Shown here in pieces: positions 1,426 to 22,463 of a stretch of DNA of 22,743 bases (the first letter of the stretch is position 1; the number at the start of each line of letters is the position of its first letter). The notes beneath the pieces are model-generated. The model was given only the letters and a program-made list of their open reading frames with translations. It did no database searches and had not been told where the DNA came from. The DNA is from Candidatus Hermodarchaeota archaeon (GTDB lineage: Archaea > Asgardarchaeota > Heimdallarchaeia > Hodarchaeales > Hodarchaeaceae): the NCBI GenBank assembly GCA_048886185.1, contig JBHLKY010000021.1:36886-59628 (forward strand), read 5' to 3'. The translations under genes were made by a program, and so were the position numbers.

Positions 1426-2793
1426 ATGACGAGTAATCAGACAGAAGTTTTAACATTAGATACAATCTTGGAGAAATCTCTTAGATATTTGGAGAAGACA
1501 TCTCCTGAAGATGTGATTGTATATGGGAATGACAATATAAATTTTCAGATACGATTCACTAGGAATGATATAATTGTGAGTAAACGATGGGCAAATATTG
1601 AGTTAGGATTTTTTTATGTTAAAGATAAAAAAATGGCAGCAACAGAAATCTCAGACATTTCATCTCTTGAATTAATCTATCACACATTGGATGACTTGAT
1701 TAAGTTCAGTCGAGCTCTTCCTCCAAAAGAAGATTATGGAGGTATAGCAGAAGGGCCTTTTGAGTACCAGTCTGTTCCAGATTTATACGATGAAAAGATA
1801 ATGGATTTCTCTGATAAAGCTGTCGATCAAATAGAACAAGGTCTTAACAGTGCTTTGGAGGCTGGGGCTAAACATAGCGCTGGAATTCTTGAATGGGGTT
1901 ATTCTAATCATAAGACTCTGACTAATCATGCTATAGACGTTACTGAAATCTTTTCGAGGTTTGAATTCTTAATTCGATCATTTGTTGAACCAACAGAGTC
2001 TGGTCAAGGAATGAGTGTTGGAAGAATGCTCAGATCACTAGATACTTTGCAAGCAGGGAATACTGCGGGGACCATTGCCGCTTTAGCGAGAGGAGCAAAA
2101 TCTGGTAAAGCAGGAATCTATAATGCACTGTTATCACCTACAGTAGTTGCAGATATCATTGCAGGTACAGTGAAGAACGCAAATCCCTTCACAATTGAAA
2201 TTGGCCAATCTTGGTTGAAAGATAAGGTAGGAGAACAAATAGCATCTAGTCTCTTCTCCGCGTATGATAATGCAGTAATTCCCGATGCTTTGGGAAGTCG
2301 CAAAGCAGATATGGAAGGAGTCCCGAGTCAAAATACAAGTATCTTAGAAAAAGGTGTATTAAAGAATCTCATCCATAATACAAGCACAGCTAATAAAGCT
2401 GATACAGAAACAACAGCTAATGCTGGGATTATTGCTCCCCAAAATAGTAATATAATGATTAAACCAGGGAATTACTCCTTTAAGGAGATGATAGATGAAT
2501 GTAGAAAACCTACAATCTATGTTACATCTAATTTTTATACAAGAACAACTAATGCAGCAGAGGGTACATTTAGTACCATTCCCAGAGATGGTATGTTTTT
2601 GATTGAGAAAGGTGAGATTAAAAAACCTATTCGGGAGCTTCGGATTTCTGATACATTTCCTAACCTCGTGAATAACATAATTGCAGTTCAGAATAAAACC
2701 CGTCAAATAAAATGGTGGGTCGAGGTGACCACTCCAACGTTAGCTCCAGCAATGTTGATTGAAAATGTCAACTTCACAACAGGTACCCAATAA
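1426..2793 (+). CDS. pmbA: PmbA/TldE family protein (non-catalytic partner of TldD)
   Basis: 455 aa; its ATG follows the tldD TAA directly (TAAATG). TldD/PmbA-type segments DMEGVP...ILEKGVL, GMFLIEKGEI and PAMLIENVNFT are present, but there is no HExxGH motif. Confidence 0.9.
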   Translation: MTSNQTEVLTLDTILEKSLRYLEKTSPEDVIVYGNDNINFQIRFTRNDIIVSKRWANIELGFFYVKDKKMAATEISDISSLELIYHTLDDLIKFSRALPPKEDYGGIAEGPFEYQSVPDLYDEKIMDFSDKAVDQIEQGLNSALEAGAKHSAGILEWGYSNHKTLTNHAIDVTEIFSRFEFLIRSFVEPTESGQGMSVGRMLRSLDTLQAGNTAGTIAALARGAKSGKAGIYNALLSPTVVADIIAGTVKNANPFTIEIGQSWLKDKVGEQIASSLFSAYDNAVIPDALGSRKADMEGVPSQNTSILEKGVLKNLIHNTSTANKADTETTANAGIIAPQNSNIMIKPGNYSFKEMIDECRKPTIYVTSNFYTRTTNAAEGTFSTIPRDGMFLIEKGEIKKPIRELRISDTFPNLVNNIIAVQNKTRQIKWWVEVTTPTLAPAMLIENVNFTTGTQ

Positions 2794-4452: not shown

Positions 4453-5493
4453 ATGAAAACTTATCATAAGATTTTTTTTAGTAATTCTAGTAATATGAAG
4501 GAAATCCTTTCTGAAAGTGTTGATCTAGTAGTAACAAGTCCCCCTTACCCGATCATTGAATTATGGGATGAGCTCTTTGCTGGAATAAACCCAGAAATTC
4601 AAAAAGCATTAGCTGCACATGATGGGCTTTTGATATTTGAATTAATGCATAAAGAACTTGATAGAGTCTGGAGAGAAGTCTATCGTGTTTTGAAAAAAGG
4701 TGGAATTGCTGCTATTAATATTGGAGATGCTGTTCGAACAATTGGAAACAACTTTATGCTCTATCCAAACCATTCAAGAGTATTAAATTATTTTCTTGAT
4801 CTAGGATTCAGTTCCTTACCAGTGATCATATGGCATAAACCAACAAATGCCCCTAATAAGTTCATGGGATCTGGAATGTTACCTCCTGGCGCATATGTCA
4901 CATTAGAGCATGAATACATCTTGATCTTAAGAAAAGGTGGAAAAAGAGAGTTTAATGAATTCCAAGAAAAGATGATTAGACAAAAAAGCTCTTATTTTTG
5001 GGAAGAACGGAATACTTGGTTTTCTGACCAATGGTACATGAAAGGAATGCCTCAAAACCTTGATGTTGGAACAAGAGATAGAAGTGCTGCTTTCCCTTTC
5101 GAGTTGCCTTATCGTCTCATAAATATGTTTTCAATCAAATATGATTTGATTTTAGACCCATTTCTTGGTACAGGTACAACAACGCTGGCAGCGATGACTT
5201 CAGGTAGGAATAGTATTGGTTTCGAATTAGACGCAAAGCTGGAAGAAATAATTTTTCAACGAATAAATAATATTCAGAAACTTGCTAATCAATACCTAGC
5301 AGAACGCTTGCGGAGGCATGAAATTTTCGTTCAAGAAAGACTGGCCAAGGGAAAACCTTTGAAACACATAAATAATGTGCATAATTTTCCTGTGATAACA
5401 AAACAAGAAGAATACCTGACTTTTGATTTTTTAAGAGCTGTATATCCAAAAGAAAACAATCACTTTGAAGTAATTTATGAGGAGAAGGTATAA
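4453..5493 (+). CDS. Orphan beta-class DNA methyltransferase (N4-cytosine type, SPPY)
   Basis: Catalytic motif IV (DLVVTSPPY) precedes SAM-binding motif I (ILDPFLGTGTT), which is the beta-class order. A GGTGA RBS lies at 4438-4442. No nuclease gene is adjacent. Confidence 0.93.
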   Translation: MKTYHKIFFSNSSNMKEILSESVDLVVTSPPYPIIELWDELFAGINPEIQKALAAHDGLLIFELMHKELDRVWREVYRVLKKGGIAAINIGDAVRTIGNNFMLYPNHSRVLNYFLDLGFSSLPVIIWHKPTNAPNKFMGSGMLPPGAYVTLEHEYILILRKGGKREFNEFQEKMIRQKSSYFWEERNTWFSDQWYMKGMPQNLDVGTRDRSAAFPFELPYRLINMFSIKYDLILDPFLGTGTTTLAAMTSGRNSIGFELDAKLEEIIFQRINNIQKLANQYLAERLRRHEIFVQERLAKGKPLKHINNVHNFPVITKQEEYLTFDFLRAVYPKENNHFEVIYEEKV

Positions 5494-5521: not shown

Positions 5522-6745
5522 ATGGGTGTAAAAATTCCTCAAATTACTCCAAACGAATTAAAACGGGTGTTAATTGTTGGTTGTCATTTACATCATTGGC
5601 AAGGTAACGATATTAGAAGAATAATTCAAGAACAGGGAATAGTTCAACTTGATCCTTTAAATCCAGCAGGCAGATATCATGATATCTTTTTCAGCTCTCG
5701 TACGCAAAAATATCAACAAGGAGACTTTGAAAAAATTGTCTATCCTGAAAAATTAGTATTTGAATCTTATTTTCATAATTTAAACGCGATTCATATTGAT
5801 CATTTTCCTCTTTTCTATTCTCAAACTCTTGATAAAGAACATCTAGGTAGATATTATAGCCGAGCGCTAAGAATACTTGAACAATCACACCCAGATATGC
5901 TTGATCAGGTTTTAGATTATGTACAAGCTCATAGTATAATACGGGGTTCTGATCTAACCACTCTAGGAAAAGCTGACCCCAAATATGCAGTATGGAAAAC
6001 TAGTAGTAATTCAGGAACAGCTCTTGAGTTACTCTGGGCTATGGGGAAATTGGCTGTTATTCGTGACGATAATTTTAGAAAAACTTATGTTACTATAGAA
6101 AATTATATTGAACCATCTAAGCTTGTTAAGAAATCTTATTCAAAAGAAGAACAACAATATTTGAAGATGAAACTTAAACTACAGAGTTTTCCCATCATTT
6201 CTGTAGGCAAATTGTCTATTAAGAAGGACGGAAATGTAAGATTTGGAAAAAAAACAGGTATTTCTCCTAAAAAAGTGCTTATAGATGAGGAATCTAGCGA
6301 GAGATTATCACCCACCCTCGTTCAGTTAAACAATGAAGCTACAGGATATATTATACCTTCAAACTGGAAGGATTTGTGTCAAAAAAATTTAGATGAAGAA
6401 ATGAGAGTTATTGGTCCATTAGATCCACTTATTTGGGATAGACAACTATTGAATAAGTTATTCAGCTTTGATTATGTATGGGAAGTCTACAAAAAAGTTG
6501 AAGATCGAATTTGGGGTTATTATGTCTATCCAATTCTTTTTCAAGGTAATTTTATTGGAAGATTAGAAGCAAAGTATGAATCCAAGTCATTAAAACTTCG
6601 TCTGTTCAATTTTCAAGCTGAAAATCACTTATCTCTTAGCCCAGATACAGAAGAAGCATTTAATCGAATGTTAAGTAGGTGGAAGAATATGGTTGGGGCA
6701 GAAAAACTTGAATATGATAAATCAATACCATTCGCAATGATTTGA
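5522..6745 (+). CDS. ycaQ: YcaQ/AlkZ (HTH_42 winged-helix) family DNA glycosylase, interstrand-crosslink repair type
   Basis: N-terminal Q-x-D catalytic motif (VQLDP). The C-terminal blocks PLDPLIWDR, FDYVWEVY and RIWGYYVYPIL...FIGRLE match the YcaQ pattern. Confidence 0.88.
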   Translation: MGVKIPQITPNELKRVLIVGCHLHHWQGNDIRRIIQEQGIVQLDPLNPAGRYHDIFFSSRTQKYQQGDFEKIVYPEKLVFESYFHNLNAIHIDHFPLFYSQTLDKEHLGRYYSRALRILEQSHPDMLDQVLDYVQAHSIIRGSDLTTLGKADPKYAVWKTSSNSGTALELLWAMGKLAVIRDDNFRKTYVTIENYIEPSKLVKKSYSKEEQQYLKMKLKLQSFPIISVGKLSIKKDGNVRFGKKTGISPKKVLIDEESSERLSPTLVQLNNEATGYIIPSNWKDLCQKNLDEEMRVIGPLDPLIWDRQLLNKLFSFDYVWEVYKKVEDRIWGYYVYPILFQGNFIGRLEAKYESKSLKLRLFNFQAENHLSLSPDTEEAFNRMLSRWKNMVGAEKLEYDKSIPFAMI

Positions 6746-6854: not shown

Positions 6855-8159
6855 TTGGCAAAAGAGAAAATTGAATGGTACCATGATTTTATAGATAGAG
6901 AATATCAACCTAAGGAAAACGACCTGGTTGCTCTTTTTTACTTTGAGAAATCGAATGAAGTGTCTATAGACGATACTATAGGCAGATTGGCATCTGAGTC
7001 ATCAATTGGAACTTGGACCACTTTAGAAACACTCGATGATCGAATTTATGATATGCGTGGACGTGCTTTCTGGAATGAAGAGCATTTAGTTAAAATTGCT
7101 TATCCTTTAGTTTTATGGGAGCTAGACAACATTCCACAACTCATGTCAGGAATAGCTGGAAATATCTTTGGAATGAAAGCTGTCCAGAATTTAAGATTGA
7201 TTGATGCTACTTTACCATTAGATTATATTAAGGGTTCCAAAGGCCCTCATTTGGGTACTGAAGCCATTCAGTCAATTTTCAAGAGGGAGGAAGGACCATT
7301 GCTTGCCTGTGTTCCTAAACCAAAGATTGGTTTGACTGTGGAACAGCATTGTGCCATTGCATGGGACTTTTGGAGTGCTGGAGGGGATCTAGTGAAAGAT
7401 GACGAAAATCTAACCTCTCAATCGTTTAATATTTTTGAGAAACGCGTCGAACAAATGGCGAGAGTTCGAGATAAGGCAGAGAATGAAACAGGTGAAATAA
7501 AAGATGCGCTTATCAATGTAACTGCCGAAACACATGAGATGGAAGAGCGGGTCAAGCTTATTCATAATCATGGATTTAGGTATTTTATGATTGATGTCGT
7601 TACAACTGGTTTTGCAAGTGTTCAGACCATAAGGAATCTTGCCGAGGATCTTGATATGGCAATACATGCACATAGAGCTATGCATGCAACCTTTACTAAA
7701 CATACATCCCATGGGATCAGTATGTATTTCTTGGCGAAATTAATGAGATTAATTGGTGTCGATAATATCCATATTGGAACTGTAGTAGGTAAGCTTGACA
7801 GTCCGAAAGAAGATGTTTTAGATATGAGAGATCTTTTACTCAAATCAGAAGTAAGTGAGGTAAAGAATAGAAGACTCTCTCAATCATGGGGTAATATTAA
7901 GCCTACATTACCAGTTGCTTCTGGAGGACTGCACCCTGGCGTAATTCCTGAAGTATTATCTGTCTATGGAACGACTGATATGCTTCTTCAAGTTGGTGGG
8001 GGCATTCACGGTCATCCTGACGGCACCTATGGAGGAACGAAAGCTACTGTTCAGGCAATAGAAGCATTTCAAGAAGGAATTTCGTTGGAAGAAAAAAGTA
8101 AATCACATCCTGAGCTTCAGAAAGCCTTGAAGAAATGGAGTTATTTAAAACCAATCTAG
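6855..8159 (+). CDS. rbcL: Form III (archaeal) ribulose-1,5-bisphosphate carboxylase large subunit
   Basis: All canonical active-site motifs are present: ESSIGTW, AGNIFGM, VPKPKIG, GGDLVKDDEN (carbamylated Lys), HAHRAMH, HIGTVVGK, VASGGLH and GGGIHGHP. 434 aa, no small subunit nearby. TTG start with GGTGA about 10 nt upstream. Confidence 0.96.
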   Translation: MAKEKIEWYHDFIDREYQPKENDLVALFYFEKSNEVSIDDTIGRLASESSIGTWTTLETLDDRIYDMRGRAFWNEEHLVKIAYPLVLWELDNIPQLMSGIAGNIFGMKAVQNLRLIDATLPLDYIKGSKGPHLGTEAIQSIFKREEGPLLACVPKPKIGLTVEQHCAIAWDFWSAGGDLVKDDENLTSQSFNIFEKRVEQMARVRDKAENETGEIKDALINVTAETHEMEERVKLIHNHGFRYFMIDVVTTGFASVQTIRNLAEDLDMAIHAHRAMHATFTKHTSHGISMYFLAKLMRLIGVDNIHIGTVVGKLDSPKEDVLDMRDLLLKSEVSEVKNRRLSQSWGNIKPTLPVASGGLHPGVIPEVLSVYGTTDMLLQVGGGIHGHPDGTYGGTKATVQAIEAFQEGISLEEKSKSHPELQKALKKWSYLKPI

Positions 8160-8216: not shown

Positions 8217-9038
8217 TTATTTTTTGTGTTTCTTCCTCAAAATGATTAACAGTCCGATTGGAACAACTGATATGAATAGCGATGGGTAATTTGCACCAGT
8301 AGGAGGATGAATATCTACTGTGTTGCTTACAGTGAGGTTATCAAATACTGTGTCGCCAAACCATGATCCGAATATGAAGTTTTCAGAAGTAGTGGTAGTT
8401 TTATCGACAACTTTGAAAACATGCTCACTGTTAATATAGATATTAAATTCTCCAGCAATATTACGGGTAATGTCTATGTGAAACAATCCTTCTAGTGCCT
8501 TTGGGAATTGAAAATAATTTAAAATGACCCAATACTTGGAGGTTTCAATGAATTCAGCTAATGTTACCGCGTGAGGCTTAAGTGAATCTTCTCGTTTCTC
8601 ATCCGAAGTTAAAACTAGCACATACCCAGTGAAATTCTTGGGGATCTCCCCAGATTCTTCAGTGGGACCATAATTATTCGCAATGAAGCAAACAACATCA
8701 TATGCTTGATGATCTGAACCAATGCTGATAAGCCAGTCAAAACTCCACGTGCCATACGCAATGGCACTAGAATGAACAGCTTGACTATAATTCCATTTAT
8801 CTTGAGTATTGGGCATTTTTAAAATTCCATTTTCAATTGTCGGAGCGAAATTTTGATTCATAACACAATCAAGTGTTACGCTTATCAAGTCAAATCCTTG
8901 GAGTTTCCACTCATCTGCAGTAGTAAAATCTTCTGACCAGACTATTTTTGCTGTTCCTTGAATTATCGGACTGATGATTAGAAATTCAAGTAAAATTCCT
9001 ATTAGCACGATTAATATGCTATATTTTTTTCGTTTCAT
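8217..9038 (-). CDS. Secreted/surface protein, probable concanavalin A-like beta-sandwich, with C-terminal TM anchor and basic tail
   Basis: Signal peptide MKRKKYSILIVLIGILL... A beta-rich core carries WSEDF, HIDITRNIAGEFNIYIN and FDNLTVS. The C-terminus is a Thr/Pro linker, a hydrophobic helix and RKKHKK. The fold call is pattern recognition only. Confidence 0.75.
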   Translation of the reverse strand: MKRKKYSILIVLIGILLEFLIISPIIQGTAKIVWSEDFTTADEWKLQGFDLISVTLDCVMNQNFAPTIENGILKMPNTQDKWNYSQAVHSSAIAYGTWSFDWLISIGSDHQAYDVVCFIANNYGPTEESGEIPKNFTGYVLVLTSDEKREDSLKPHAVTLAEFIETSKYWVILNYFQFPKALEGLFHIDITRNIAGEFNIYINSEHVFKVVDKTTTTSENFIFGSWFGDTVFDNLTVSNTVDIHPPTGANYPSLFISVVPIGLLIILRKKHKK

Positions 9039-9121: not shown

Positions 9122-10504
9122 TTACAAATCTAAAAATACCATTTTTATTGATAATATGCCTACAACAAGAATAACAACTATAAGGCCTTCTACCAGAAAT
9201 AAAACAGCTATACGCGTGAATGCTATGGATCCAATCAAATTATTTTGAGTAACTGTTAATATTTCAAGATTATCTCCTCTATAAGTATGGTTCCATTGAA
9301 TGACACCAGATTCATCGGTTTTTACTAAATATATGTCATATCCACCTTCAGATGAGTCAATGTGTCCTGCAAGGGCGAAATCCCTATTTGAAGTTAGGGT
9401 CATGGTGCCATCCCCCATATTGCCATAACTTTGGTTCCACTGGATAATTCCTGATGGATCGGTTTTCACTAGGCACAACCCTCCAGCCTCGAAGGCAAAA
9501 CCTCCATCGTGAGTTTGAACCATAACGTCTATACGACTCCACTCCTCACCAAATTCCCCATATGTCTGGTTCCATTGGATGACTCCAGTTGGGTCTGTTT
9601 TCACCAACCATGTGCTAGTATGAAGACATATGCCATGAGATATTCCCTTCGTAGCACCTGCGAGAGCAAATCCTCCATCCTTAGTTTGGATTAAATCAGT
9701 AGTGGCATCATAATCTGTTCCTCCGTAAGTTTGGTTCCATTGGAAATCACCATTCAGATCAATTTTCACCAGCCACATATCATTCCCTCCTGCTCCGAAT
9801 GAATCAGTAGCACTCGCGATGGCAAATCCTCCATCCGTGGTCTGAACTAAAGAAGGAGCACTATTGCAATCAATTTTTTCATAGGTTTGAGTCCATTGGG
9901 TTACTCCATTGGAGTCAGTTTTCACTAGCCACATTTCATTTACATCACCAGCATCATTTGGCCAGTCGTAGCCCGTAATGGCAAATCCACCATCCGTAGT
10001 TTGGACAAGGGAAACATCAGTAGTACGATCCGCAGGATCTGTGAAAGTCTGACACCATAGAATAACTCCGTTTTTGTCTGTTCTCACCAATAAATGACCT
10101 CCAGCAATGGCAAAACCTCCATCTGCAGTTTGAATAATGGCAGAATGAGGATCAAAATTATAAGCCTGGTTCCAAAGGGGTATTCCGTTAGCATCGATTT
10201 TCATCAACCACAAGTAACCACGACCAAAATTTTCAGAATAATAATGAATGAAATCCCCTGCCATGACAAAACCCCCATCTATGGTCTGGAAAAGTGTTTG
10301 TATATAATATTGTCTTGACCTTCCTCCATTAAACACTTCAGGATTTGTGTCCTCCCCAGGGAGTAGGGGGGGGAAAAAGAATGAGAAAACTAAAATAAAA
10401 ATGATCGAGCTTCTTCTACGGAAAAAATTGCGTGGCTTTGAAGGATTTCTTCGGCAATGAGGTTGGAATAATGTATTCTTTCGGAGTCTAAGATTCCAAG
10501 TCAT
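9122..10504 (-). CDS. Membrane-anchored surface protein with seven QTxDGGF...WLVKTD.NG..QWNQTY repeats (probable 7-bladed beta-propeller)
   Basis: 460 aa. A basic N-region and hydrophobic stretch are followed by seven 40-55 aa repeats and a C-terminal TM helix. The start overlaps the upstream stop codon (ATGA at 10504-10501). Confidence 0.85.
   Translation of the reverse strand: MTWNLRLRKNTLFQPHCRRNPSKPRNFFRRRSSIIFILVFSFFFPPLLPGEDTNPEVFNGGRSRQYYIQTLFQTIDGGFVMAGDFIHYYSENFGRGYLWLMKIDANGIPLWNQAYNFDPHSAIIQTADGGFAIAGGHLLVRTDKNGVILWCQTFTDPADRTTDVSLVQTTDGGFAITGYDWPNDAGDVNEMWLVKTDSNGVTQWTQTYEKIDCNSAPSLVQTTDGGFAIASATDSFGAGGNDMWLVKIDLNGDFQWNQTYGGTDYDATTDLIQTKDGGFALAGATKGISHGICLHTSTWLVKTDPTGVIQWNQTYGEFGEEWSRIDVMVQTHDGGFAFEAGGLCLVKTDPSGIIQWNQSYGNMGDGTMTLTSNRDFALAGHIDSSEGGYDIYLVKTDESGVIQWNHTYRGDNLEILTVTQNNLIGSIAFTRIAVLFLVEGLIVVILVVGILSIKMVFLDL
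9275..10300 (-). repeat. Intragenic tandem protein repeats (7 units, consensus LVQTxDGGFAIAG-x-WLVKTDxNGxIQWNQTYG)
   Basis: Visible in the translation and as recurring DNA, e.g. gcaaatcc(t/a)ccatc and tggttcca(t/c)tgg. Boundaries are approximate. Confidence 0.85.
10366..10373 (-). repeat. C8 homopolymer tract (G8 on + strand) at the end of the signal-peptide region of the propeller gene
   Basis: The minus strand reads TTC CCC CCC CTA. This is the longest G/C run I found in this AT-rich window; others reach 6. Confidence 0.8.
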
Positions 10505-10974
10505 CTTTCGCTCATCTCCTTAATCTTCTTGAACAAAAGATCACTGAGATCGGTGGGACGGAGGCTTTTATTGGGTATTTTGATATTTCTCTCTTTAAAT
10601 TCCTGGATCAATGTCTCTCTACAATCACTAAATTCCTCACAGCTCGTACAGTCTCCTTTGTGTTCGTACCATACCTGTAAGCCGTTTTTAGGGGAAAAGG
10701 TTATATGAGCTGAAATGTTGAAAATGTGACTATGTCCTTGGGCAATTCCCAGTTCACTATTAATGAAAACAAGCTTGATTTTATTCATTCTCGCCGCTTC
10801 CTCCAACATTCCCCTAATTCTTTTGTTTGCTTCCTTGATGGATCTACTCACATACCCTGGATCCACATCTATTCGTTCTGCTATCTCTCTTCCCGTTAAT
10901 TTGTTCCGTTTCAAAGCCCAAATAGTTATCTGACTTTCAGTCGGAGGTTTATGTTTATGTGAAAATGAAAACAT
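10501..10974 (-). CDS. HTH DNA-binding protein with a C-terminal His/Cys cluster (putative metal- or redox-sensing transcriptional regulator)
   Basis: N-terminal HTH pattern: TESQITIW...LTGREIAERIDVDPGYVSRSIKEA. The C-terminal WYEHKGDCTSCEEFSDC carries H, CxxC and a third C. Confidence 0.8.
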   Translation of the reverse strand: MFSFSHKHKPPTESQITIWALKRNKLTGREIAERIDVDPGYVSRSIKEANKRIRGMLEEAARMNKIKLVFINSELGIAQGHSHIFNISAHITFSPKNGLQVWYEHKGDCTSCEEFSDCRETLIQEFKERNIKIPNKSLRPTDLSDLLFKKIKEMSER

Positions 10975-12265: not shown

Positions 12266-13075
12266 TTAGCTTTTAAGAAATTCAATTAGAGCTTGAGTAT
12301 ACTCATCACTCATAATTAGATAAGGGAAATGATTTGCCTTTTTTCTAAATTTCTTTACAGAAGCTTGGGGATATGTCTTTTTTAATTCATCTTGCAGTTG
12401 CTTGGGTACCAATGGATCCTCTATTGTTTCTATGATCAGTATTTGATTTGTTGGAGATTTATTGATGATATCGTTTGTAATGAAGCTCTTTAATCGCGCC
12501 ATCAATATCTCTTTTGTTAAATGCTGCTCTAATTGTACAAAAAGATAATCACGGGTTTGATCATGTTCAATTGACTTTAATCCTTTTTTCATGAACCTTT
12601 TTATCAGAAAGTTGGGTATAAATTTTTCAATCATCAGTAATTTTTTATATTTCTGGTTATAAAGGTGCGTAGTAATAAATGTATTTGAAAGAACAAGTTT
12701 TTGAACTATTGCTGCATAATTGAAAGAAAAAAATTAGGCCAAGTACCCTCCAAACGATGTCCCAACTAATACTATTTCCTTTATTCCACATCTAATGAGT
12801 ATTTCATAAATTCCTTTCGATAATTTGTCAAGTCCAATTATAGGAGGAAGATCGAAACTTACTATACGATTTGTTTTCATTAATGACTGCATTTGAATCC
12901 AAAAGATATCTTTACTTCCTGTAGTACCATGTAAAAAAACTATGGCGAAATCTGACTCTAATTTTCCCAAATCATAATATTGCCATTTCACATGATTTAG
13001 GATAACTTCATTAGTTTCATGTTGTTGCTGAAACGATCTTAGATCTTCTATAGACCAAGACATTTCATTCCACAT
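12266..13075 (-). pseudogene. Maspardin-like alpha/beta hydrolase interrupted by one in-frame TAA (12736-12734)
   Basis: ORF-track pieces 12734..13075 and 12266..12634 are in the same frame. Reading through gives GTSFGGYLA*FFSFNYAAIVQKLVLSNTFITTHLYNQKYKKLLMIEK with no other stop, 269 codons in total. Confidence 0.85.
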
Positions 13076-16530: not shown

Positions 16531-17562
16531 TTAAAATCTCTTCTTCTTAGTGGGATAAGCCTTGAATGGAGTACGAGGTTCAAGACTTAACCAATCTGTG
16601 GTATCATCTAAGTGAGAAAGAGAATGTAATAAATCATAAGTCACCCAGCGAGATGCTTGAGGATGAGGGGAGTATTCCCATAACCCATAAGGCCCTTGTA
16701 AGTTAATAACAAAATCTAAGAAGCTTGCTATTCTTTCATCTTCAAGACTAGCTTTAATTCGCCAACATAAGTGAAGAATGAAAGCGACATCAAATTTAGC
16801 AAAATGAGTAAAGTATCCACCCATTGGTTCTAACCCAATCGTACGAGCAACCTCAAATCCAAGAGTGTGCTTCTCATGGGTTTCACGGGCAAGAAGTAAG
16901 TTCAATGCCTTACGAGCTGCTTTACCTGTTCTATGTTGAGGATGTAAAGCCAAACAGTGTATTATAGCAGTAGTATTTGTACGGCATCCCCAACGGGAAT
17001 GAGCAAGTCTTCGATATCCTGCAATGAAACCTTTTGTTCCAGCTTTTGTGCCCGCTGGCCATGACCCATCTTTTAATTGATGAGCAATTAACCATTCATA
17101 GCCACGCTCAGCTCGTTTATCAGTAGAATATCCACATGATGCTATGGCTCGCAAGGGAAAAGCTGTTTGTAAAGGAATCATATCATATCCTCCATCAATT
17201 TTTTGGCTCTTGGCTGGAAGAGGCCAGGAACCATCATCCAATTGCCTTGTAAAGAGAAATTCCACTCCATTCTTAACGGATGGATGACGAGATGAAAACC
17301 CTAAGAATCCAAATCTTAGTAAAACCATTGATGTAGCTGTAATTTTATCGGTATATGTGAATAAATGTGAGAAATCACTACCTTTCCATGAACCATCATC
17401 CTTTTGGAATTCAATAAAGTCTATTATTAGAGGATCTGAATCAAGAATTTCTCTTAATTCCTTTACTTCTTGGTCTGATTCTGATTTATGGAGTAGATTC
17501 TTCAGCACCAATAAACGCAAACAAGGCGATGGATCAGCCAACAATAATGGTATTCGATTCAT
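16531..17562 (-). CDS. Prenyltransferase/squalene-cyclase QW-repeat (alpha/alpha)6 barrel protein of unknown function
   Basis: Four QW motifs: QKDDGSW, QLDDGSW, QLKDGSW and QGPYGLW. No DxDD cyclase motif. The ATG at 17562 overlaps the uvrA stop (ATGA). Confidence 0.85.
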   Translation of the reverse strand: MNRIPLLLADPSPCLRLLVLKNLLHKSESDQEVKELREILDSDPLIIDFIEFQKDDGSWKGSDFSHLFTYTDKITATSMVLLRFGFLGFSSRHPSVKNGVEFLFTRQLDDGSWPLPAKSQKIDGGYDMIPLQTAFPLRAIASCGYSTDKRAERGYEWLIAHQLKDGSWPAGTKAGTKGFIAGYRRLAHSRWGCRTNTTAIIHCLALHPQHRTGKAARKALNLLLARETHEKHTLGFEVARTIGLEPMGGYFTHFAKFDVAFILHLCWRIKASLEDERIASFLDFVINLQGPYGLWEYSPHPQASRWVTYDLLHSLSHLDDTTDWLSLEPRTPFKAYPTKKKRF

Positions 17563-20500
17563 GAACAATTCCCCAATACTTTTTGAATGTAAGGAGCAGT
17601 TGGAGTCTTGTGAGTTGCCACTTTGGAAGGGGTTCCATTTGCAAGAATATGACCCCCTTCTGGCCCCCCGACGGGTCCAAGTTCAATTACCCAATCACAT
17701 GCTGCAAGTACGTATGGATGGTGTTCAATTACTACGACAGTGTTTCCCTCGTCGACTAACTGATGAAGAACTTTCATTAATTGAGATATATCTTGTAAAC
17801 TCTGGCCTATGGTAGGTTCATCTAAAATATATAGAGTTGAAGGTTCTGATTTTGACTTCTTTCGGCATAATTCTTTTGCAATCTTTAATCGTTGACATTC
17901 GCCTCCTGATAAATGGATTCTTGGTTGACGTAAGATTAAATATCCAAGTCCCACTTTTTTTGCCATTTTTATTGGACGAGAAATTCTCTCATCATAATTG
18001 AATAAGTCATATATTTGATTAAGTGTTAAATCATATAGTTCTGGTAATGTGTAGCCATGTAATCGAACCATCCATGCTTCTGCTGTGAGACCAGTTCCTT
18101 CACAAATATCACAACGAATATATACATCAGGGAGGAACCCCATGTCCATTTTAATCATACCTCTCCCATTACAATGTGAACATTGTCTATATAACTGTGT
18201 TTCATCCAATTCAACAGCTTTTGCATCATCACTCTCTGCATATAGGGAATAAAGGGGCTTTTTTAAGTTCAAATAAGTAAGGGGACTACTCACCTCTTGT
18301 TTTGATTGATCGATGATTATTGTTCTTGATGGAACTCCTTCAATAGAGTCATATCTTCCAGGTTCAATTGGCTCTTGTGCAACTGATGTTGTGTGTTTCT
18401 TAGGAGCTAAAATACGTCCTAAAGTATCAATTAAGAGTGTACTTTTCCCTGAGCCAGAAACACCACATATTCCTACAAGTGTACCTAATGGTATTTTAAA
18501 GGGTTCTCCTTTAAGGTTATTTTGTGATGCACCGTTCAAAGTTAACCACCCTTGAGGATTTCTATATGATCCATACTTCGTAGGGCGTTTAAATCGCCTT
18601 TTTCCGCTTAACCATAAAGCAGTGATCGTATCAGAGTTTATGATATCCGATACTGTACCTTGAGCTGTAATTGTACCCCCCAACACCCCTGGCCCTGGTC
18701 CTATATCTATTATATAATCAGCAGCCTTTATCATCTGAGGATCGTGCTCAATTACAATAACAGTGTTACCTTCATCACGAAGACTAATTAACGCACTGAG
18801 TAATCCATTAATTTCATTCGGATGAAGTCCTCTAGTTGGTTCGTCAAGTAATACAGTAAGAGAGGTGAGACTACTACCAAGTAATCCTGCTAGTTTTATA
18901 CGCTGTGCTTCTCCAGCACTTAAGGTCATTAATATTCGTGAAGCATTCATATATCCTAAGCCGACTTGATTTAAGAACTCTAAACGTCGAATCATTGTAT
19001 CTAGACTGTATTTGGCAACATGAGTGTCAATATCTGGTAGAATAAGGTTATTTAATACTTGTTGAAGTTGTATAAAAGGCATTTCATTTAGTTCGTGAAT
19101 ATTGTAAGTACTTAGTGTCACCGTAAGATATTCTGGTCTGAGTCTGGTCCCATTACATTCAGAACATGTTTCTGAGGATGTGTAGGTTCCACCTACGTCC
19201 CAATCACCAATCCATCCATAAAAACCTTTAAAATTAATAATCCTAGTATAATCCCCAAGTTTTTTACTTTTACTTTCAAAATTTACTTCTAAAGGTTGTT
19301 GATCTCCAAATAGAAATGCCTGTTGAGCTTCAGATTTCATCTCATTCCAAGGAGTAACCATTGGATCGAATCCATAACGATTAGCCAAAGCCTGAATTAT
19401 ATAGTATCCTCCATTATATCGTTTACACAGGTACCCTTTCGGAAAGAAACCTGGGGAAAACATAGCTCCTTTACACAATGGTTTTTCAGGATGAATAATT
19501 AATTTTTCTGGGTTAGGTATTTGAATGGTTCCAACCCCTTGGCATGCTTGACACGCAGATGCATAATTAGAAGGCGAGAAATACTTTGGTTTTGGAACTG
19601 GAGAAATTTTTCTGCATTTAGGGCAAATCCATTCATTTTGACTTTTCCGACATGATAAACCACAGGTGGGGCAAAAATAATCTCCAAAATTCGAGATTAA
19701 AACTGTTAAATGATGAGAAATCTCAGTTATTAAACCAACAGTTGAACGATAATTATACCATCTGCCTATTCGCTTGGGGTCAATGCTAATAGTTACACCA
19801 AGACCTGAAACGGAGTCAACGGGTGCTTCAGGACCCTCACTTAAGCCTTGTCGTTCATAAAGGGATAATGTCTCAAGATATCGCCTTTCTGCTTCAGCTT
19901 TTAAAACATCATTGATCAAACTTGATTTTCCAGAACCAGATACTCCTGTAATTACTGTTAATGCTCCTTTTGGAAATTCTACTGATATTTTTTTCAGGTT
20001 ATTAGCTGAAGCATTTTTAATTTGGATTGTGTCTGATATTCTGGATAGTTTAGTTTGTTTTGCTTCAGGATTTATTGATTCTTCATAATGAAGTCCTTGT
20101 GTTGTCAAGGACTCTATTTTGTTTAATAATCCTTGGGGAACCCCGCTATATATTAATTCTCCTCCTAATGGTCCTGCACCAGGTCCAAGATCAATGATCC
20201 AATCAGCTGCTCGAATGAAATCTGAATTATGCTCTACAACCACCACTGTTGCTCCAGTACGAATTAGTTTATCCAAAACAGACAAAAGACATGAAATATC
20301 ATAGGGGTGAAGCCCTGTAGATGGTTCGTCCAATAAAATAAGCTGATCTTCTAGCGATTTTTTTCCCAGATATTTAGCCAATTTTACTCGTTGAGCTTCT
20401 CCTCCAGAGAGCGTTGGCGATGGTTGACCTAGAGGGAGATATCCCAATCCAACATCTTTTAACGCTTCAAGAATTCGTTTTACAGTGTTTCTATCTTTTT

Positions 20501-22463
20501 GCGTTAAATTCAGATTACTACTTTTAATAAACCACTCGTAAGCTTCGTCGACTGATAGCTTATAGAAGTCTGCTATTGAAAGCGATTCTTTTTCGAATTG
20601 TACTTTTAGAGACAGGACTTCTCTTGAAAAACGTTCTCCCTCACAGATACTGCATTGAATCCAAGTTGAAGGTAGATAACGCATTTTTACCTCAACTGCT
20701 CCCATTCCTTTACAATCTTCACACCATCCTTCTTCCCGATTGAATGAAAAGTGAGAGGGAGATAACTTCGTTATTCTCGCAAAAATATCCCTAATGACTG
20801 CTGCTAAGTTAGTATAGGTTGCTGGATTTGACCGTGGATTTTTCCCAATTGGTGATTGATCAACAAGAAGGGGTTTTAACTCCTTTCCTTTAATTTCTTT
20901 ACATCCAACTGGTTTTTTCTTCGATAATGATGCATGTAACACATCATCAATAAATGTGCTTTTACCACTTCCACTAGGCCCTGTTATGACTGTTAAACGT
21001 CGTAGTGGAATTCTAATGTTAATACTTTTAAGATTCCTGAAATTTGCTTCAATGATCTCTATAAATTGAGATGGAGGTGACCGATGTTCAGGAATCTTTA
21101 CATGCTCACGCATACTGAAGAAACGACCAGTATAACTCTCTTCTCGCCATAATGAAGGTAATGCTCCTGAAAATATTATTTTTCCTCCTTCTTTACCTGC
21201 TCCAGGTCCAAGATCTATGGCTTGATCTGCAGCAGCCGCTGCAACTCGATCATGTTCTACAAAAATAACAGGTCCACTAAATTGTTGGAATGCTGGAAGA
21301 AGGTTAGTTACATCCATTATACTTAAACCAATAGTTGGTTCATCTAACACATGCACCATATCTTCTAATCTGCTAATTAATGCAACCGCTAAACGGACTC
21401 TCTGAGATTCACCTCTTGATAATGTAGGTGATCGACGATTTAAGGTAATATAACCTAAACCAACTGTTATTAAAGCTTCTAATCGTCTCTGAATTTCAAA
21501 AATCACACGATTTGCTGATGAGGCTTCTTTTGGATCCTTAAAAATGGTAGAAAGCTCATCAACTGATCGAGCTAGAAGCTCTGGTAAATGAGAGCCATTC
21601 CAAGTAATTGATAAAGCTTCCGGATGTACTCCAGTCTTCTGACATTGATCACATCCGTTCCTGTTACAAAATGGACAGGGAGTGTTAAATATTGTTGTTT
21701 TTATACCTTTAATCCATTGGCCACATTCAGGACAAACATTAGTAAATGAAAGTGTAGAACGATTCCGATTTTGTGATTCATACTGCACACTAATACAATT
21801 TGCACCAAGAGATTTTATTTTTTGGACACATTTTCTAATTGTACTCAAAGAGATTGAATTATCAATAGCTGCGATTCGAATTTCAATATCATGAGAGTCA
21901 TGTGGATCTAATTCTTTAAATTGATATTGAAATCCATCCACTAGTAGTGCTTCCTTCCCAAATTCTTCAACAAGTGTATCTAATAAAGTTCTATGGCTTC
22001 CTTTTACTCCCTTTACCAAAGGAGCATAAATACTTATTGAATCAACTTTAGCAATACTGAATAGTTGATCGATGATCTCATCCTCTGAATAAATGCGAAT
22101 GGCTGTTCCACACGCTGTACAATGACGTTGACCAAAATTTATATAGAAGATTCTTAAAAAAGGATGTAATCCAGAAGCAGATGCGAGGGTGGATAGAGGA
22201 TTCCGATTGAGGATGTTCTGTTCGATTGCAATTGTTGGACCCAATCCTGAAATCCGTTGAACATTAGCTGGGGCTAGACGGGGTTTAGATCCTCGCGTAA
22301 ATATCTCCGAAAAACGTCGACGGGCTTCATGATATAATGTTGAGAAAATAAGAGAACTTTTTCCACTACCCGATATTCCAGTAACGACAGTTAAACCATC
22401 TCCAAATTCAATATCAATATTTTGAAGGTTATTTTCATTAGCTCCTTCTATCTGAATTTTCAT
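17559..22463 (-). CDS. uvrA: Double-length (tandem-fused) UvrA-family ABC ATPase, four nucleotide-binding domains
   Basis: 1634 aa. Four Walker A motifs ([24 protein letters not shown] x2), four signatures (LSRGE, LSGGE, LSAGE, LSGGE), four DEP Walker B motifs and many CxxC zinc modules. UvrA-specific motifs include ANxNNL and DLGPGAG. Confidence 0.93.

Follow-up and report, generated by a model that had tools for sequence, protein, structure and literature searches.

The window, by which we mean the whole 22,743-nt stretch of DNA analysed here, contains two adjacent genes which are best explained, at a probability of roughly 55%, as a single-chain asymmetric UvrA sensor that would carry a toroid effector in place of UvrB, within a two-gene operon. 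As judged from the alignments, the double UvrA unites two UvrA units covalently in one asymmetric chain, a state conserved across the family; together with the toroid gene it forms a conserved and translationally coupled two-gene operon. The pair probably marks an unstudied DNA-surveillance system acting without UvrB or UvrC, and our literature searches returned no publication describing the double UvrA + toroid module.

Architecture and conservation of the double UvrA

The double UvrA is encoded by an uninterrupted ORF of 1634 aa (17559–22463; this and all features below lie on the reverse strand), which comprises two UvrA units and four ABC ATPase modules. Unit 1 (aa 1–790; 20094–22463) consists of NBD-I, a UvrB-binding-type domain and NBD-II, the insertion domain being absent; unit 2 (aa 813–1634; 17562–20027) consists of NBD-I, the insertion domain and NBD-II, the UvrB-binding domain being absent. 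The linker between the units (aa 791–812; 20028–20093) is the least conserved part of the chain, its anchor-to-anchor length being 24–26 residues in 97 of the 119 aligned family members. This distribution of the accessory domains, one in each half, had been proposed in a sequence-only reading of the same DNA; Pfam, TIGR00630 and the alignment to E. coli UvrA agree on it, and the positions given there for both inserts and the junction are accurate.

When the whole chain was searched with Pfam, UvrA_inter (PF17760) gave a single match at aa 126–201 (30.3 bits against a cut-off of 23.3) and UvrA_DNA-bind (PF17755) a single match at aa 987–1080 (27.5 bits). The former lies in the UvrB-binding-type domain with its Zn module 1 (aa 115–247, with C115, C118, C244 and C247; 21723–22121), which is also delimited by the E. 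coli UvrA alignment and is the predicted toroid docking site. The latter lies in the insertion (DNA-binding) domain with Zn module 2 (aa 971–1103; 19155–19553), which has invariant motifs specific to the double UvrA family, e.g., SPGFFPKGY, and a mean column identity of 0.76. The corresponding modules of the opposite units are collapsed, as the sequence-only reading had recognised for both zinc pairs: in Zn module 2 of unit 1 (C263, C266, C271, C274; 21642–21677) a four-residue spacer between the CxxC motifs replaces the insertion domain, the same in 119/119 members, and in Zn module 1 of unit 2 (C931, C934, C947, C950; 19614–19673) the CxxC pairs are 12 residues apart, with a spacing of 11–23 residues in all 119. 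The TIGR00630 model is covered at positions 1–273 and 401–922 by unit 1 and at 2–131 and 249–924 by unit 2; these gaps recur in phmmer alignments to PDB sequences, and in the alignment to E. coli UvrA approximately residues 284–405 are missing from unit 1 and 124–245 from unit 2.

More than 119 full-length homologues were found (55–75% identity, 100% coverage), and the lopsided two-unit layout is invariant in 119/119 of those aligned, which belong to Asgard archaea, Bathyarchaeia and Chloroflexota. Across these members the UvrB-binding domain measures 118–154 aa and the insertion domain 122–125 aa, and four Walker A, four Walker B and four H-loop motifs are kept together with all 24 Zn cysteines. 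A misassembly of two ordinary uvrA genes, a hazard named in the sequence-only reading, is ruled out because the layout and an identical junction recur throughout the homologues. In the tree, unit 1 and unit 2 each form a clade with 100% support and their branching orders agree, indicating a single fusion preceding the family radiation. The units share 32% identity, and the unrooted tree shows a three-way split (unit 1, unit 2, canonical + class II) with long branches meeting, which internal duplication and fusion of paralogues fit alike.

Following the scheme of proximal and distal sites described for UvrA, with an adenine-stacking Arg in the distal site and a Gln in the proximal one (PMC6486640), we assigned the deviant ABC signatures in the two signature domains I to distal-type sites. 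These are LSRGE in unit 1 (21408–21422), with Arg in 119/119 members, and LSAGE in unit 2 (18909–18923), with Ala in 119/119; in both units the Arg of the distal site (R343 and R1176) and the Gln of the proximal site (Q680 and Q1513) are retained. The unusual D-loops pointed out earlier, GLS in NBD1 and GQS in NBD4, are real; they characterise subclades, Ser replacing His in 16/119 and 4/119 members, respectively, against a family consensus of GQH. The FSFN motif had been called degenerate in the same two modules; in the E. coli UvrA alignment this holds for NBD1, whereas in NBD4, that is in signature domain II of unit 2, FSFN is lost altogether, as is GRTPRSN. The C-terminal Zn hairpin was correctly attributed to both units according to this alignment, and both mostly retain the residues forming the ATP-binding domain I dimer interface in canonical UvrA. 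In the structure model of aa 1–1200 (pTM 0.67), pLDDT falls below 50 at aa 54–63, 79–87, 866–878 and 891–911, which are interface loops. Among the DNA-binding residues of E. coli signature domain II (R712, R722, R724, R730), one is kept in unit 1 and none in unit 2; DNA binding by the double UvrA may differ from that of UvrA because most of these basic residues are not kept.

The toroid gene and its predicted docking site

Downstream of the double UvrA lies a gene for a 343-aa QW-repeat (alpha/alpha)6 toroid (16531–17562; PF13243, 42.2 bits against a cut-off of 26.1), which was overlooked in the sequence-only reading. The two genes overlap in an ATGA read from the sequence (17559–17562), where the stop TGA of UvrA falls within the toroid start ATG. 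In species-representative genomes, the double UvrA is located immediately upstream of the toroid on the same strand in 53 of the 58 assessable loci, all from species other than that of the source genome, and the 4-nt start/stop overlap occurs in 39/45 loci of other species having an intact upstream ORF. The pair was also seen in each of four loci read individually on their encoding contigs. After removal of shadow ORFs, no conserved third gene was found at the toroid/UvrA loci, and the pair alone is universal. Two matches resembling natural toroid–UvrA fusions were rejected as frameshift artefacts: both are N-truncated gene calls in which the end of UvrA continues in the wrong frame into the beginning of the toroid. 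The toroid family has approximately 1900 database matches in taxa identical to those of the double UvrA, and 170 relatives in species-representative genomes. Databases label the double UvrA as “ABC domain protein” or “excinuclease ABC subunit A” and the toroid as “hypothetical protein”.

The toroid model has a pLDDT of 85.9 and a pTM of 0.88, and its fold matches are generic alpha/alpha barrels (Foldseek E 2.5e-5; VIA Z 14–15, the best value of 14.8 being at the background level of helical repeats); a protein atlas search with the toroid returned its own clusters. NCBIfam cyclase models score it at 35–46 bits, below their cut-offs of 322–851, and the 343-aa sequence has neither DxDD, the catalytic acid motif, nor CGEQ, the thioester motif. 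The family has the invariant residues R184, H188, R190, C193, R194, N196 and H207 and the invariant motif GYRRLAHSRWGCRSNTT, of which we know no counterpart. The invariant residues are equally compatible with catalysis, metal binding or DNA contact.

The structure prediction has the toroid docking on the UvrB-binding-type domain of unit 1. In the predicted complex of the toroid with this domain, ipSAE is 0.78 (runs 0.78, 0.81, 0.78) against 0.00 for the best of three controls, and swapping out the UvrB-binding-type chain reduces the score to 0.00. The runs share at least 40% of contacts at a partner pLDDT of at least 79. This mark is attained by 58/80 solved complexes and 2/110 mismatched pairs, a calibration which is only rough here because the alignments were self-made and the job contained three chains; the input consisted of isolated domains in one structure prediction. 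To our knowledge there is no solved complex of the toroid/UvrB-binding-domain kind, so the score is unlikely to be due to a memorised structure. The unit 1 residues predicted to contact the toroid are aa 149–164, 187, 193, 215–222 and 240–250, and conservation is higher at the predicted interfaces than in the remainder of the respective domains (0.67 vs. 0.50, 0.86 vs. 0.72, 0.88 vs. 0.74). A second predicted contact, with the insertion domain of unit 2, found no support by itself, the control retaining the insertion-domain chain scoring 0.00.

The sequence-only reading had pictured a covalent pseudo-heterodimer which loads one partner. The covalent asymmetric chain stands, and the predicted toroid docking, the fate of the UvrB-contacting residues and the gene content of Bathyarchaeia speak against UvrB as that partner; the partner of the unit 1 domain is probably not UvrB. 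R216 and E222 of E. coli UvrA represent its UvrB/Mfd interaction surface (PMC3025350), and their equivalents are unconserved in the double UvrA family, being variable residues and Gln, respectively. If the double UvrA did serve UvrABC repair, unit 1 would load a single UvrB, the insertion domain of unit 2 would clamp DNA, and the toroid would be an accessory or an unrelated co-transcribed gene. The UvrA_inter score above the Pfam cut-off agrees with such a role, which we nevertheless hold to be unlikely: besides the changes at R216 and E222, the toroid is predicted to sit on the UvrB-binding-type domain itself, and the GRTPRSN and FSFN motifs are gone from signature domain II of unit 2, which would have been the second UvrB contact.

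Gene content of the hosts and possible function

The same question can be addressed with uvrA, uvrB and uvrC of the host genomes. The window has neither uvrB nor uvrC, as had been stated from the sequence alone, and the search for these genes and for a canonical uvrA elsewhere in the genome, proposed at that time, found all of them, uvrA twice. UvrB is thus already served by two canonical uvrA genes in the source genome, and canonical uvrA + uvrB accompany the pair in four other hosts as well. The presence of uvrB and uvrC in the source genome and in 23/26 other toroid-bearing Asgard genomes, with uvrB in the four further hosts, might be taken in favour of UvrABC repair. However, uvrB is frequent in Asgard genomes regardless of the toroid (24/27 toroid-bearing genomes, the source genome included, vs. 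113/151 overall), and its co-occurrence within this group is uninformative. The pair was found in six Bathyarchaeia genomes, four of which have intact double UvrA ORFs of 1630–1669 aa. In these pair-bearing genomes uvrB was found in 0/6 (one of the six is a known-complete chromosome, and its double UvrA is truncated), uvrC in 0/5 searched, and canonical uvrA in none of the six, again with one known-complete chromosome. The intact pair thus occurs in Bathyarchaeia where uvrB, uvrC and canonical uvrA were not found, which argues against UvrABC repair as its function.

The preferred reading, a UvrA sensor with the toroid as its effector, has a more specific sub-case which we consider rather improbable, though less so than UvrABC repair: protection against DNA-binding or alkylating natural products similar to that by DrrC and Ecm16, where the UvrA part would dislodge the ligand and the toroid would capture or modify it, with no incision. 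Class IIa UvrAs such as Ecm16 and DrrC need ATPase activity and work without UvrB and UvrC (PMC9328131). Unit 2 lacks the UvrB-binding domain as in class II, and alpha/alpha barrels of the toroid type bind terpenoid and other hydrophobic ligands. Some neighbours point in the same direction: a gene of the glyoxalase/bleomycin-resistance family follows the toroid in approximately 10 Promethearchaeota loci, an AlkD-like gene adjoins the pair here and in three related loci, and an AlkZ-like glycosylase gene is located within the window. Patchiness of the pair among close relatives (2/7 in its own genus) would also suit such a function. Yet each of these neighbour hints is limited to one lineage, neither a biosynthetic cluster nor an efflux pump is consistently nearby, and the two genes alone are universal; present evidence points to no ligand, and the invariant residues of the toroid fit catalysis, metal binding and DNA contact alike.

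Patchiness, together with occurrence in both archaea and bacteria, might also suggest a module defending against phages or plasmids, whose UvrA-like ABC ATPase would sense foreign or modified DNA, with the toroid as the effector. In PADLOC, the ATPase modules are recognised by two models of the MADS defence system, mad3 and mad8 (E 1e-120 and 2e-50), and UvrA-like ATPases have therefore been recruited into candidate defence systems. But the PADLOC matches are limited to the generic UvrA-type NBD, the toroid has no match among PADLOC models, and a nuclease, toxin or other usual effector is absent. The neighbours represent housekeeping and repair genes, not defence islands, and retention of the pair in 16/19 genomes of one Asgard family is more suggestive of stable inheritance. 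We regard a defence function as very improbable.

Under the preferred reading of a toroid-carrying UvrA sensor, we suppose that units 1 and 2 fold back onto one another in the manner of a UvrA dimer and use ATP to scan duplex DNA, with all four nucleotide sites retained and each accessory domain supplied once, by different units. The former UvrB-binding domain is predicted to carry the toroid, so that the toroid, not UvrB, would be brought to the site where the sensor stalls. Speculatively, the barrel of the toroid might there bind or process either a small molecule on the DNA or a bulky adduct. Such a system would be independent of UvrB/UvrC and would operate in parallel to the canonical UvrABC genes of the genome. 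More tentatively, at somewhat less than even odds, it would be a third UvrA-based machine beside UvrABC repair and class II drug resistance: ATP-driven, UvrB/UvrC-independent, handing a lesion or DNA-bound toxin to a barrel protein, and common to Asgard archaea, Bathyarchaeia and Chloroflexota.

Because UvrA is a symmetric homodimer, its four ATP sites, its pair of UvrB-docking domains and its pair of DNA clamps cannot be assigned separate roles. The double UvrA offers a natural single-chain UvrA in which each site can be mutated separately, and in which evolution has already left each accessory domain in a single copy and changed the two distal signatures. Should the toroid dock at the UvrB site, the UvrA scaffold would have been put to new use in delivering another effector, and, if true, this would represent a widespread unannotated DNA-protection system. 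Its hosts include Asgard archaea, whose DNA-repair repertoire bears on ideas about the origin of eukaryotes.

Comparison with known UvrA and barrel proteins

Each unit has the same build as class I UvrA (E. coli; 2R6F/3UWX, 3PIH, 3ZQJ, 9GXK; TIGR00630/NF001503), with two ABC modules (proximal and distal), three Zn modules and the C-terminal Zn hairpin, and scores 495–537 bits against solved UvrAs. The double UvrA differs in having two units per chain, each accessory domain once, two Zn modules collapsed to knuckles, the LSRGE/LSAGE distal signatures, loss of R216/E222 and of most signature-II arginines, and an obligate toroid partner gene. Neither unit alone passes TIGR00630 (662.0 for unit 1 and 661.8 for unit 2, cut-off 729.8) or NF001503 (657.5 and 663.4, cut-off 1147); the whole chain passes because the two unit scores add up. 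With two ABC modules per unit the double UvrA is built like class I, but the UvrB-binding and insertion domains, which class I has in every protomer, are each confined to one unit.

Class II UvrAs (D. radiodurans UvrA2, 2VF7; DrrC; Ecm16, 7SH1) resemble unit 2 in having no UvrB-binding domain, and, like them, the double UvrA is an accessory paralogue beside canonical UvrA and probably UvrB-independent (PMC9328131). However, they form homodimers of single units, and in class IIa the first Zn motif is missing, whereas unit 2 retains four cysteines of Zn module 1. Unit 2 is moreover fused to a unit with a UvrB-binding-type domain, a domain found nowhere in class II, and a partner protein is dedicated to the double UvrA. 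Both units of the double UvrA fall outside the group of canonical and class II proteins in the tree.

The fused UvrAs of Planctomycetes and Chlamydiae are the housekeeping UvrAs of their organisms. A “class III” of duplicated UvrA may have been defined in earlier nomenclature. The double UvrA shares with fused UvrAs in general two complete units and four NBDs in one conserved ORF, and it scores 855 bits with the chlamydial double UvrA model (NF001885, 1809 positions), far below the cut-off of 3054. Unlike the fusions of both phyla, which are approximately 170–330 aa longer, it accompanies canonical uvrA as an additional paralogue and is linked to the toroid gene. For Planctomycetes, Mahajan et al. 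(2021, PMC8567305) mention a UvrA fusion double the length of the E. coli protein.

The toroid has the QW-repeat (alpha/alpha)6 barrel in common with single-barrel class II terpene cyclases and with proteins of the prenyltransferase fold (SHC 1GSZ, MstE 6SBB, 6IJ1), but lacks the DxDD protonation motif. Its likeness to the thioester domains of complement and alpha2-macroglobulin is one of fold only (Z 14.8), CGEQ being missing, and its sequence identity to these barrel proteins is 10–19%. [quoted passage not shown] According to the model, the toroid would likewise be a partner held by the small domain that interrupts signature domain I, and its predicted contacts at aa 215–222 would adjoin the helix which bears R216 and E222 in E. 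coli. The contact is made by domain 2 in UvrB and Mfd, whereas here an alpha/alpha toroid is predicted to dock via its conserved N-terminal helices.

Architecture and origin of the double UvrA

The frame at 17559-22463 (-) runs uninterrupted for 1634 codons, and Pfam restricts the UvrB-interaction domain (PF17760) to aa 126-201, in unit 1 (aa 1-790), and the DNA-binding/insertion domain (PF17755) to aa 987-1080, in unit 2 (aa 813-1634). The UvrA equivalog model TIGR00630 is covered at positions 1-273 and 401-922 by unit 1 and at 2-131 and 249-924 by unit 2, and both gaps recur in alignments to solved UvrAs. When the chain is aligned with E. coli UvrA and the two canonical UvrAs of the host genome, 4 residues between CPFC and CDQC replace the insertion domain of about 120 residues in unit 1, while 12 residues between CPTC and CPKC replace the UvrB-binding domain in unit 2. 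The sequence-only reading had placed a UvrB-binding domain in the first half only and an insertion domain in the second only, and all three comparisons bear this out; its remarks on the FSFN motif and on the C-terminal zinc hairpins of both halves are also correct in the alignment.

In a protein search, at least 119 homologues matched over the full length (1611-1743 aa, 55-75% identity, 100% query coverage); they belong to Asgard archaea (the closest among the matches listed), Bathyarchaeota and Chloroflexi/Anaerolineae, labelled in the databases just as “ATP-binding cassette domain-containing protein” or “excinuclease ABC subunit A”. Across the 119 aligned members, unit 1 invariably has a spacer of exactly 4 residues and unit 2 one of 11-23. 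The UvrB-binding-type domain measures 118-154 residues, the insertion domain measures 122-125, and 97 members have an inter-unit linker of 24-26. Misassembly of ordinary uvrA genes is ruled out, since the same layout is a family trait in at least 119 full-length homologues.

The two units are 32% identical (321 bits), and each is closer to canonical UvrA (511 and 537 bits) than to the other. In a quick maximum-likelihood tree built from 20 family members (split into units), 10 canonical and 2 class II-like UvrAs, three groups emerge: unit 1 with support 100, unit 2 with 100, and the canonical and class II UvrAs together with 97. Since the sub-trees of the two units are congruent and each forms a supported group, the tree indicates a single fusion predating the family radiation; it fits either an internal duplication or two paralogues as the source of the units.

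Walker A, Walker B and the H-loop are conserved at all four ATPase modules (NBD1-NBD4), as are all 24 zinc cysteines, in the 119-member alignment. This protein does have the Ser-for-His change noticed earlier in the D-loops of NBD1 and NBD4, but the change is confined to subclades (16/119 and 4/119); GQH is the consensus of the family. [quoted passage not shown] All four sites probably bind nucleotide, as the adenine-stacking Arg of the distal sites (R343, R1176) and the Gln of the proximal sites (Q680, Q1513) are retained.

Most of the dimer-interface positions of ATP-binding domain I listed in PMC12796330 are retained in both units. At the DNA wedge given by the same source (Ct Y62, Q65, F66), unit 1 has G/P/R and unit 2 has Y/Q/G. 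DNA binding by E. coli UvrA requires four arginines of signature domain II (PMC3025350); one is retained in unit 1 and none in unit 2, from which the GRTPRSN and second FSFN motifs are also lost.

The toroid gene and its linkage to the double UvrA

Directly downstream lies the gene of the toroid, a 343-aa protein (16531-17562, -) matching the squalene-hopene-cyclase C-terminal repeat (PF13243, 42 bits), whose ATG overlaps the double-UvrA stop TGA in the ATGA at 17559-17562. The toroid family has about 1900 matches, almost all of 340-354 aa, in the same taxa as the double UvrA; many lie on contigs of equal length to those of double-UvrA matches, among them a pair with adjacent locus tags (A2Z14_13060, A2Z14_13065). 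The pair with its 4-nt overlap was present in 4/4 other loci read.

Searching species-representative genomes with the alignment of the toroid family gave 170 relatives, of which 80 loci were fetched and 58 had enough upstream DNA to be assessed. The fetched loci are archaeal (Heimdall-, Hod-, Prometh-, Thor- and Hermodarchaeota, Bathyarchaeia) and bacterial (several Chloroflexota classes and single KSB1, Zixibacteria, Aminicenantes and Patescibacteria bins). In 53 of the 58, a double UvrA lies immediately upstream in the same orientation; four have a partial one and one has none. Of 45 intact upstream frames, 39 share the 4-nt overlap with the toroid start. No universal third gene was found across the neighbourhoods examined. 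The toroid is an obligate, translationally coupled partner of a conserved, asymmetric, four-site UvrA-like chain.

The sole assessable stand-alone toroid (L067, a 1.24 Mb contig of an uncultured Chloroflexia) has no UvrA-like gene within the 13 kb fetched. The double UvrA is interrupted or truncated (ORFs of 308-807 aa) in locus L050 of a Bathyarchaeota chromosome (G152, CP070784.1) and likewise in long-read Chloroflexia or Bathyarchaeota bins (L032, L057, L064, L075, L076, L085, L088), through either assembly frameshifts or real decay.

The toroid model is an (alpha/alpha)6 barrel (pLDDT 85.9, pTM 0.88); its best fold matches are the complement C5 thioester domain (Z 14.8), squalene-hopene cyclase (14.6) and drimenyl diphosphate synthase (14.4), values of about 14-15 that the comparison tool calls common for helical repeats. 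Neither the DxDD nor the CGEQ motif is present in its sequence. The invariant stretch GYRRLAHSRWGCRSNTT, together with H207 and the conserved C-terminal tail, may make up a site for metal binding, catalysis or nucleic-acid contact.

Predicted docking and probable independence from UvrB

The toroid was co-folded with two UvrA segments, aa 112-250 (the UvrB-binding-type domain) and aa 968-1106 (the insertion domain), using the family alignment of each chain. The docking score was 0.78 (runs 0.78, 0.81, 0.78), whereas none of three controls scored above 0.00; the mark of 0.78 is attained by 58/80 solved complexes and 2/110 mismatched pairs, counts that hold roughly here, being calibrated on single-chain pairs and other alignments. 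At least 40% of contacts are shared between the runs, the partner pLDDT is at least 79, and swapping out the UvrB-binding-type chain abolishes the score. The tightest predicted contacts lie between UvrA aa 149-164 (also 215-222) and the conserved N-terminal helices of the toroid (aa 5-13, 20-36), and the predicted interface residues are better conserved than the remainder of their domains. To our knowledge, no comparable complex has been solved. In E. coli, the double substitution of R216 and E222 disrupts the UvrB/Mfd surface (PMC3025350), and these residues align to variable residues and Gln in the double-UvrA family. The toroid is predicted to dock on the former UvrB-binding domain of unit 1. 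A further contact is predicted for the invariant AHSR segment of the toroid, with three family-specific motifs of the insertion domain (GFF, YNG and WIGDWDV); it is an attractive candidate, though not supported in its own right, and may conflict with the canonical dimer geometry.

The host genome (4.84 Mb, 96% complete) carries on other contigs two canonical-length UvrAs (1366 and 1067 bits), UvrB (992 bits) and UvrC (478 bits), so that the uvrB, uvrC and canonical uvrA sought elsewhere are all present and the double UvrA is an extra paralogue, as it is in one Heimdallarchaeota chromosome and three Chloroflexota genomes. The canonical-length genes lie at G000:C18:46181-48970 (L002) and G000:C1:182723-185500 (L001) of this genome; the second UvrA (961-aa ORF, 1067 bits) belongs to a divergent clade common to a Heimdallarchaeota and a Caldilineaceae genome and also lacks an R216 equivalent.

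The toroid is patchy in the phylum (27/151 sampled genomes; 2/7 in its own genus, 16/19 in one family), and uvrB occurs in 113/151, so that their co-occurrence there is uninformative. Six Bathyarchaeia genomes possess the pair, four with intact ORFs of 1630-1669 aa; uvrB was found in 0/6, uvrC in 0/5 and canonical uvrA was not found, completeness being established for only one of the six. Since the three genes are unlinked and missing throughout, it is improbable that incompleteness alone accounts for their loss, and this absence is the strongest evidence for UvrB- and UvrC-independence of the module. The pair is accessory beside canonical UvrABC in the host and is present without UvrB or UvrC in Bathyarchaeia.

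Possible mechanism and comparison with known UvrAs

We suggest that the two units would pair intramolecularly as a UvrA-like dimer, scan DNA and stall at a distortion. The complex would be polar, because the docking domain sits at just one end and the clamp at just the other, and the toroid instead of UvrB would be delivered to the site, where, more speculatively, it might bind or chemically process a bulky adduct or a DNA-bound small molecule.

Neighbouring genes give weak, lineage-restricted hints at genotoxin handling. About 530 bp upstream of the double uvrA start, outside the window, a divergent gene (L011:880-1644, +, equal to G000:C21:59879-60643) encodes an AlkD-like protein of 254 aa with HEAT repeats (DNA_alkylation family, PF08713, E 5e-7), and a Methyltransf_10 gene comes next; three related loci (L022, L015, L016) have homologues of the AlkD-like gene (59-74% identical) at most 7 kb from the pair. 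A 137-aa glyoxalase/bleomycin-resistance-superfamily gene follows the toroid immediately on the same strand at L040:7980-8393; about 10 Promethearchaeota loci share it (L043, L044, L046, L049, L051, L058, L072, L079, L083), the copies being 67-88% identical and confined to one lineage.

Another weak hint of this sort is an AlkZ-like DNA glycosylase within the window (407 aa, 5522-6745, +; PF06224, E 1e-26), which is flanked by an N6/N4 DNA methylase (4453-5493) and a RuBisCO large-subunit gene (6855-8159), which adjoin each other without it in the related locus L016. Four ORFs on the (-) strand have no Pfam match (9122-10504, 460 aa; 10501-10974, 157 aa; 12266-12634, 122 aa; 8217-9038, 273 aa), the first two sharing a 4-nt overlap. 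An adjacent PmbA/TldD metallopeptidase pair occupies 1-1425 and 1426-2793 (+), the first ORF extending past the window start.

Neither a double UvrA with complementary losses nor a UvrA-toroid pair is described in the papers covered by the literature search. There is a substantial chance that the pair represents a new type of UvrA-based system. Fused uvrA genes are known from Planctomycetes (PMC8567305), and the UvrA of Chlamydiae has its own model (NCBIfam NF001885, cut-off 3054), against which our double UvrA scores 855 bits. Class II UvrAs lack the UvrB-binding domain and function without NER partners (PMC9328131); they are single-unit proteins with no dedicated partner, whereas the double UvrA combines two units with a toroid partner.
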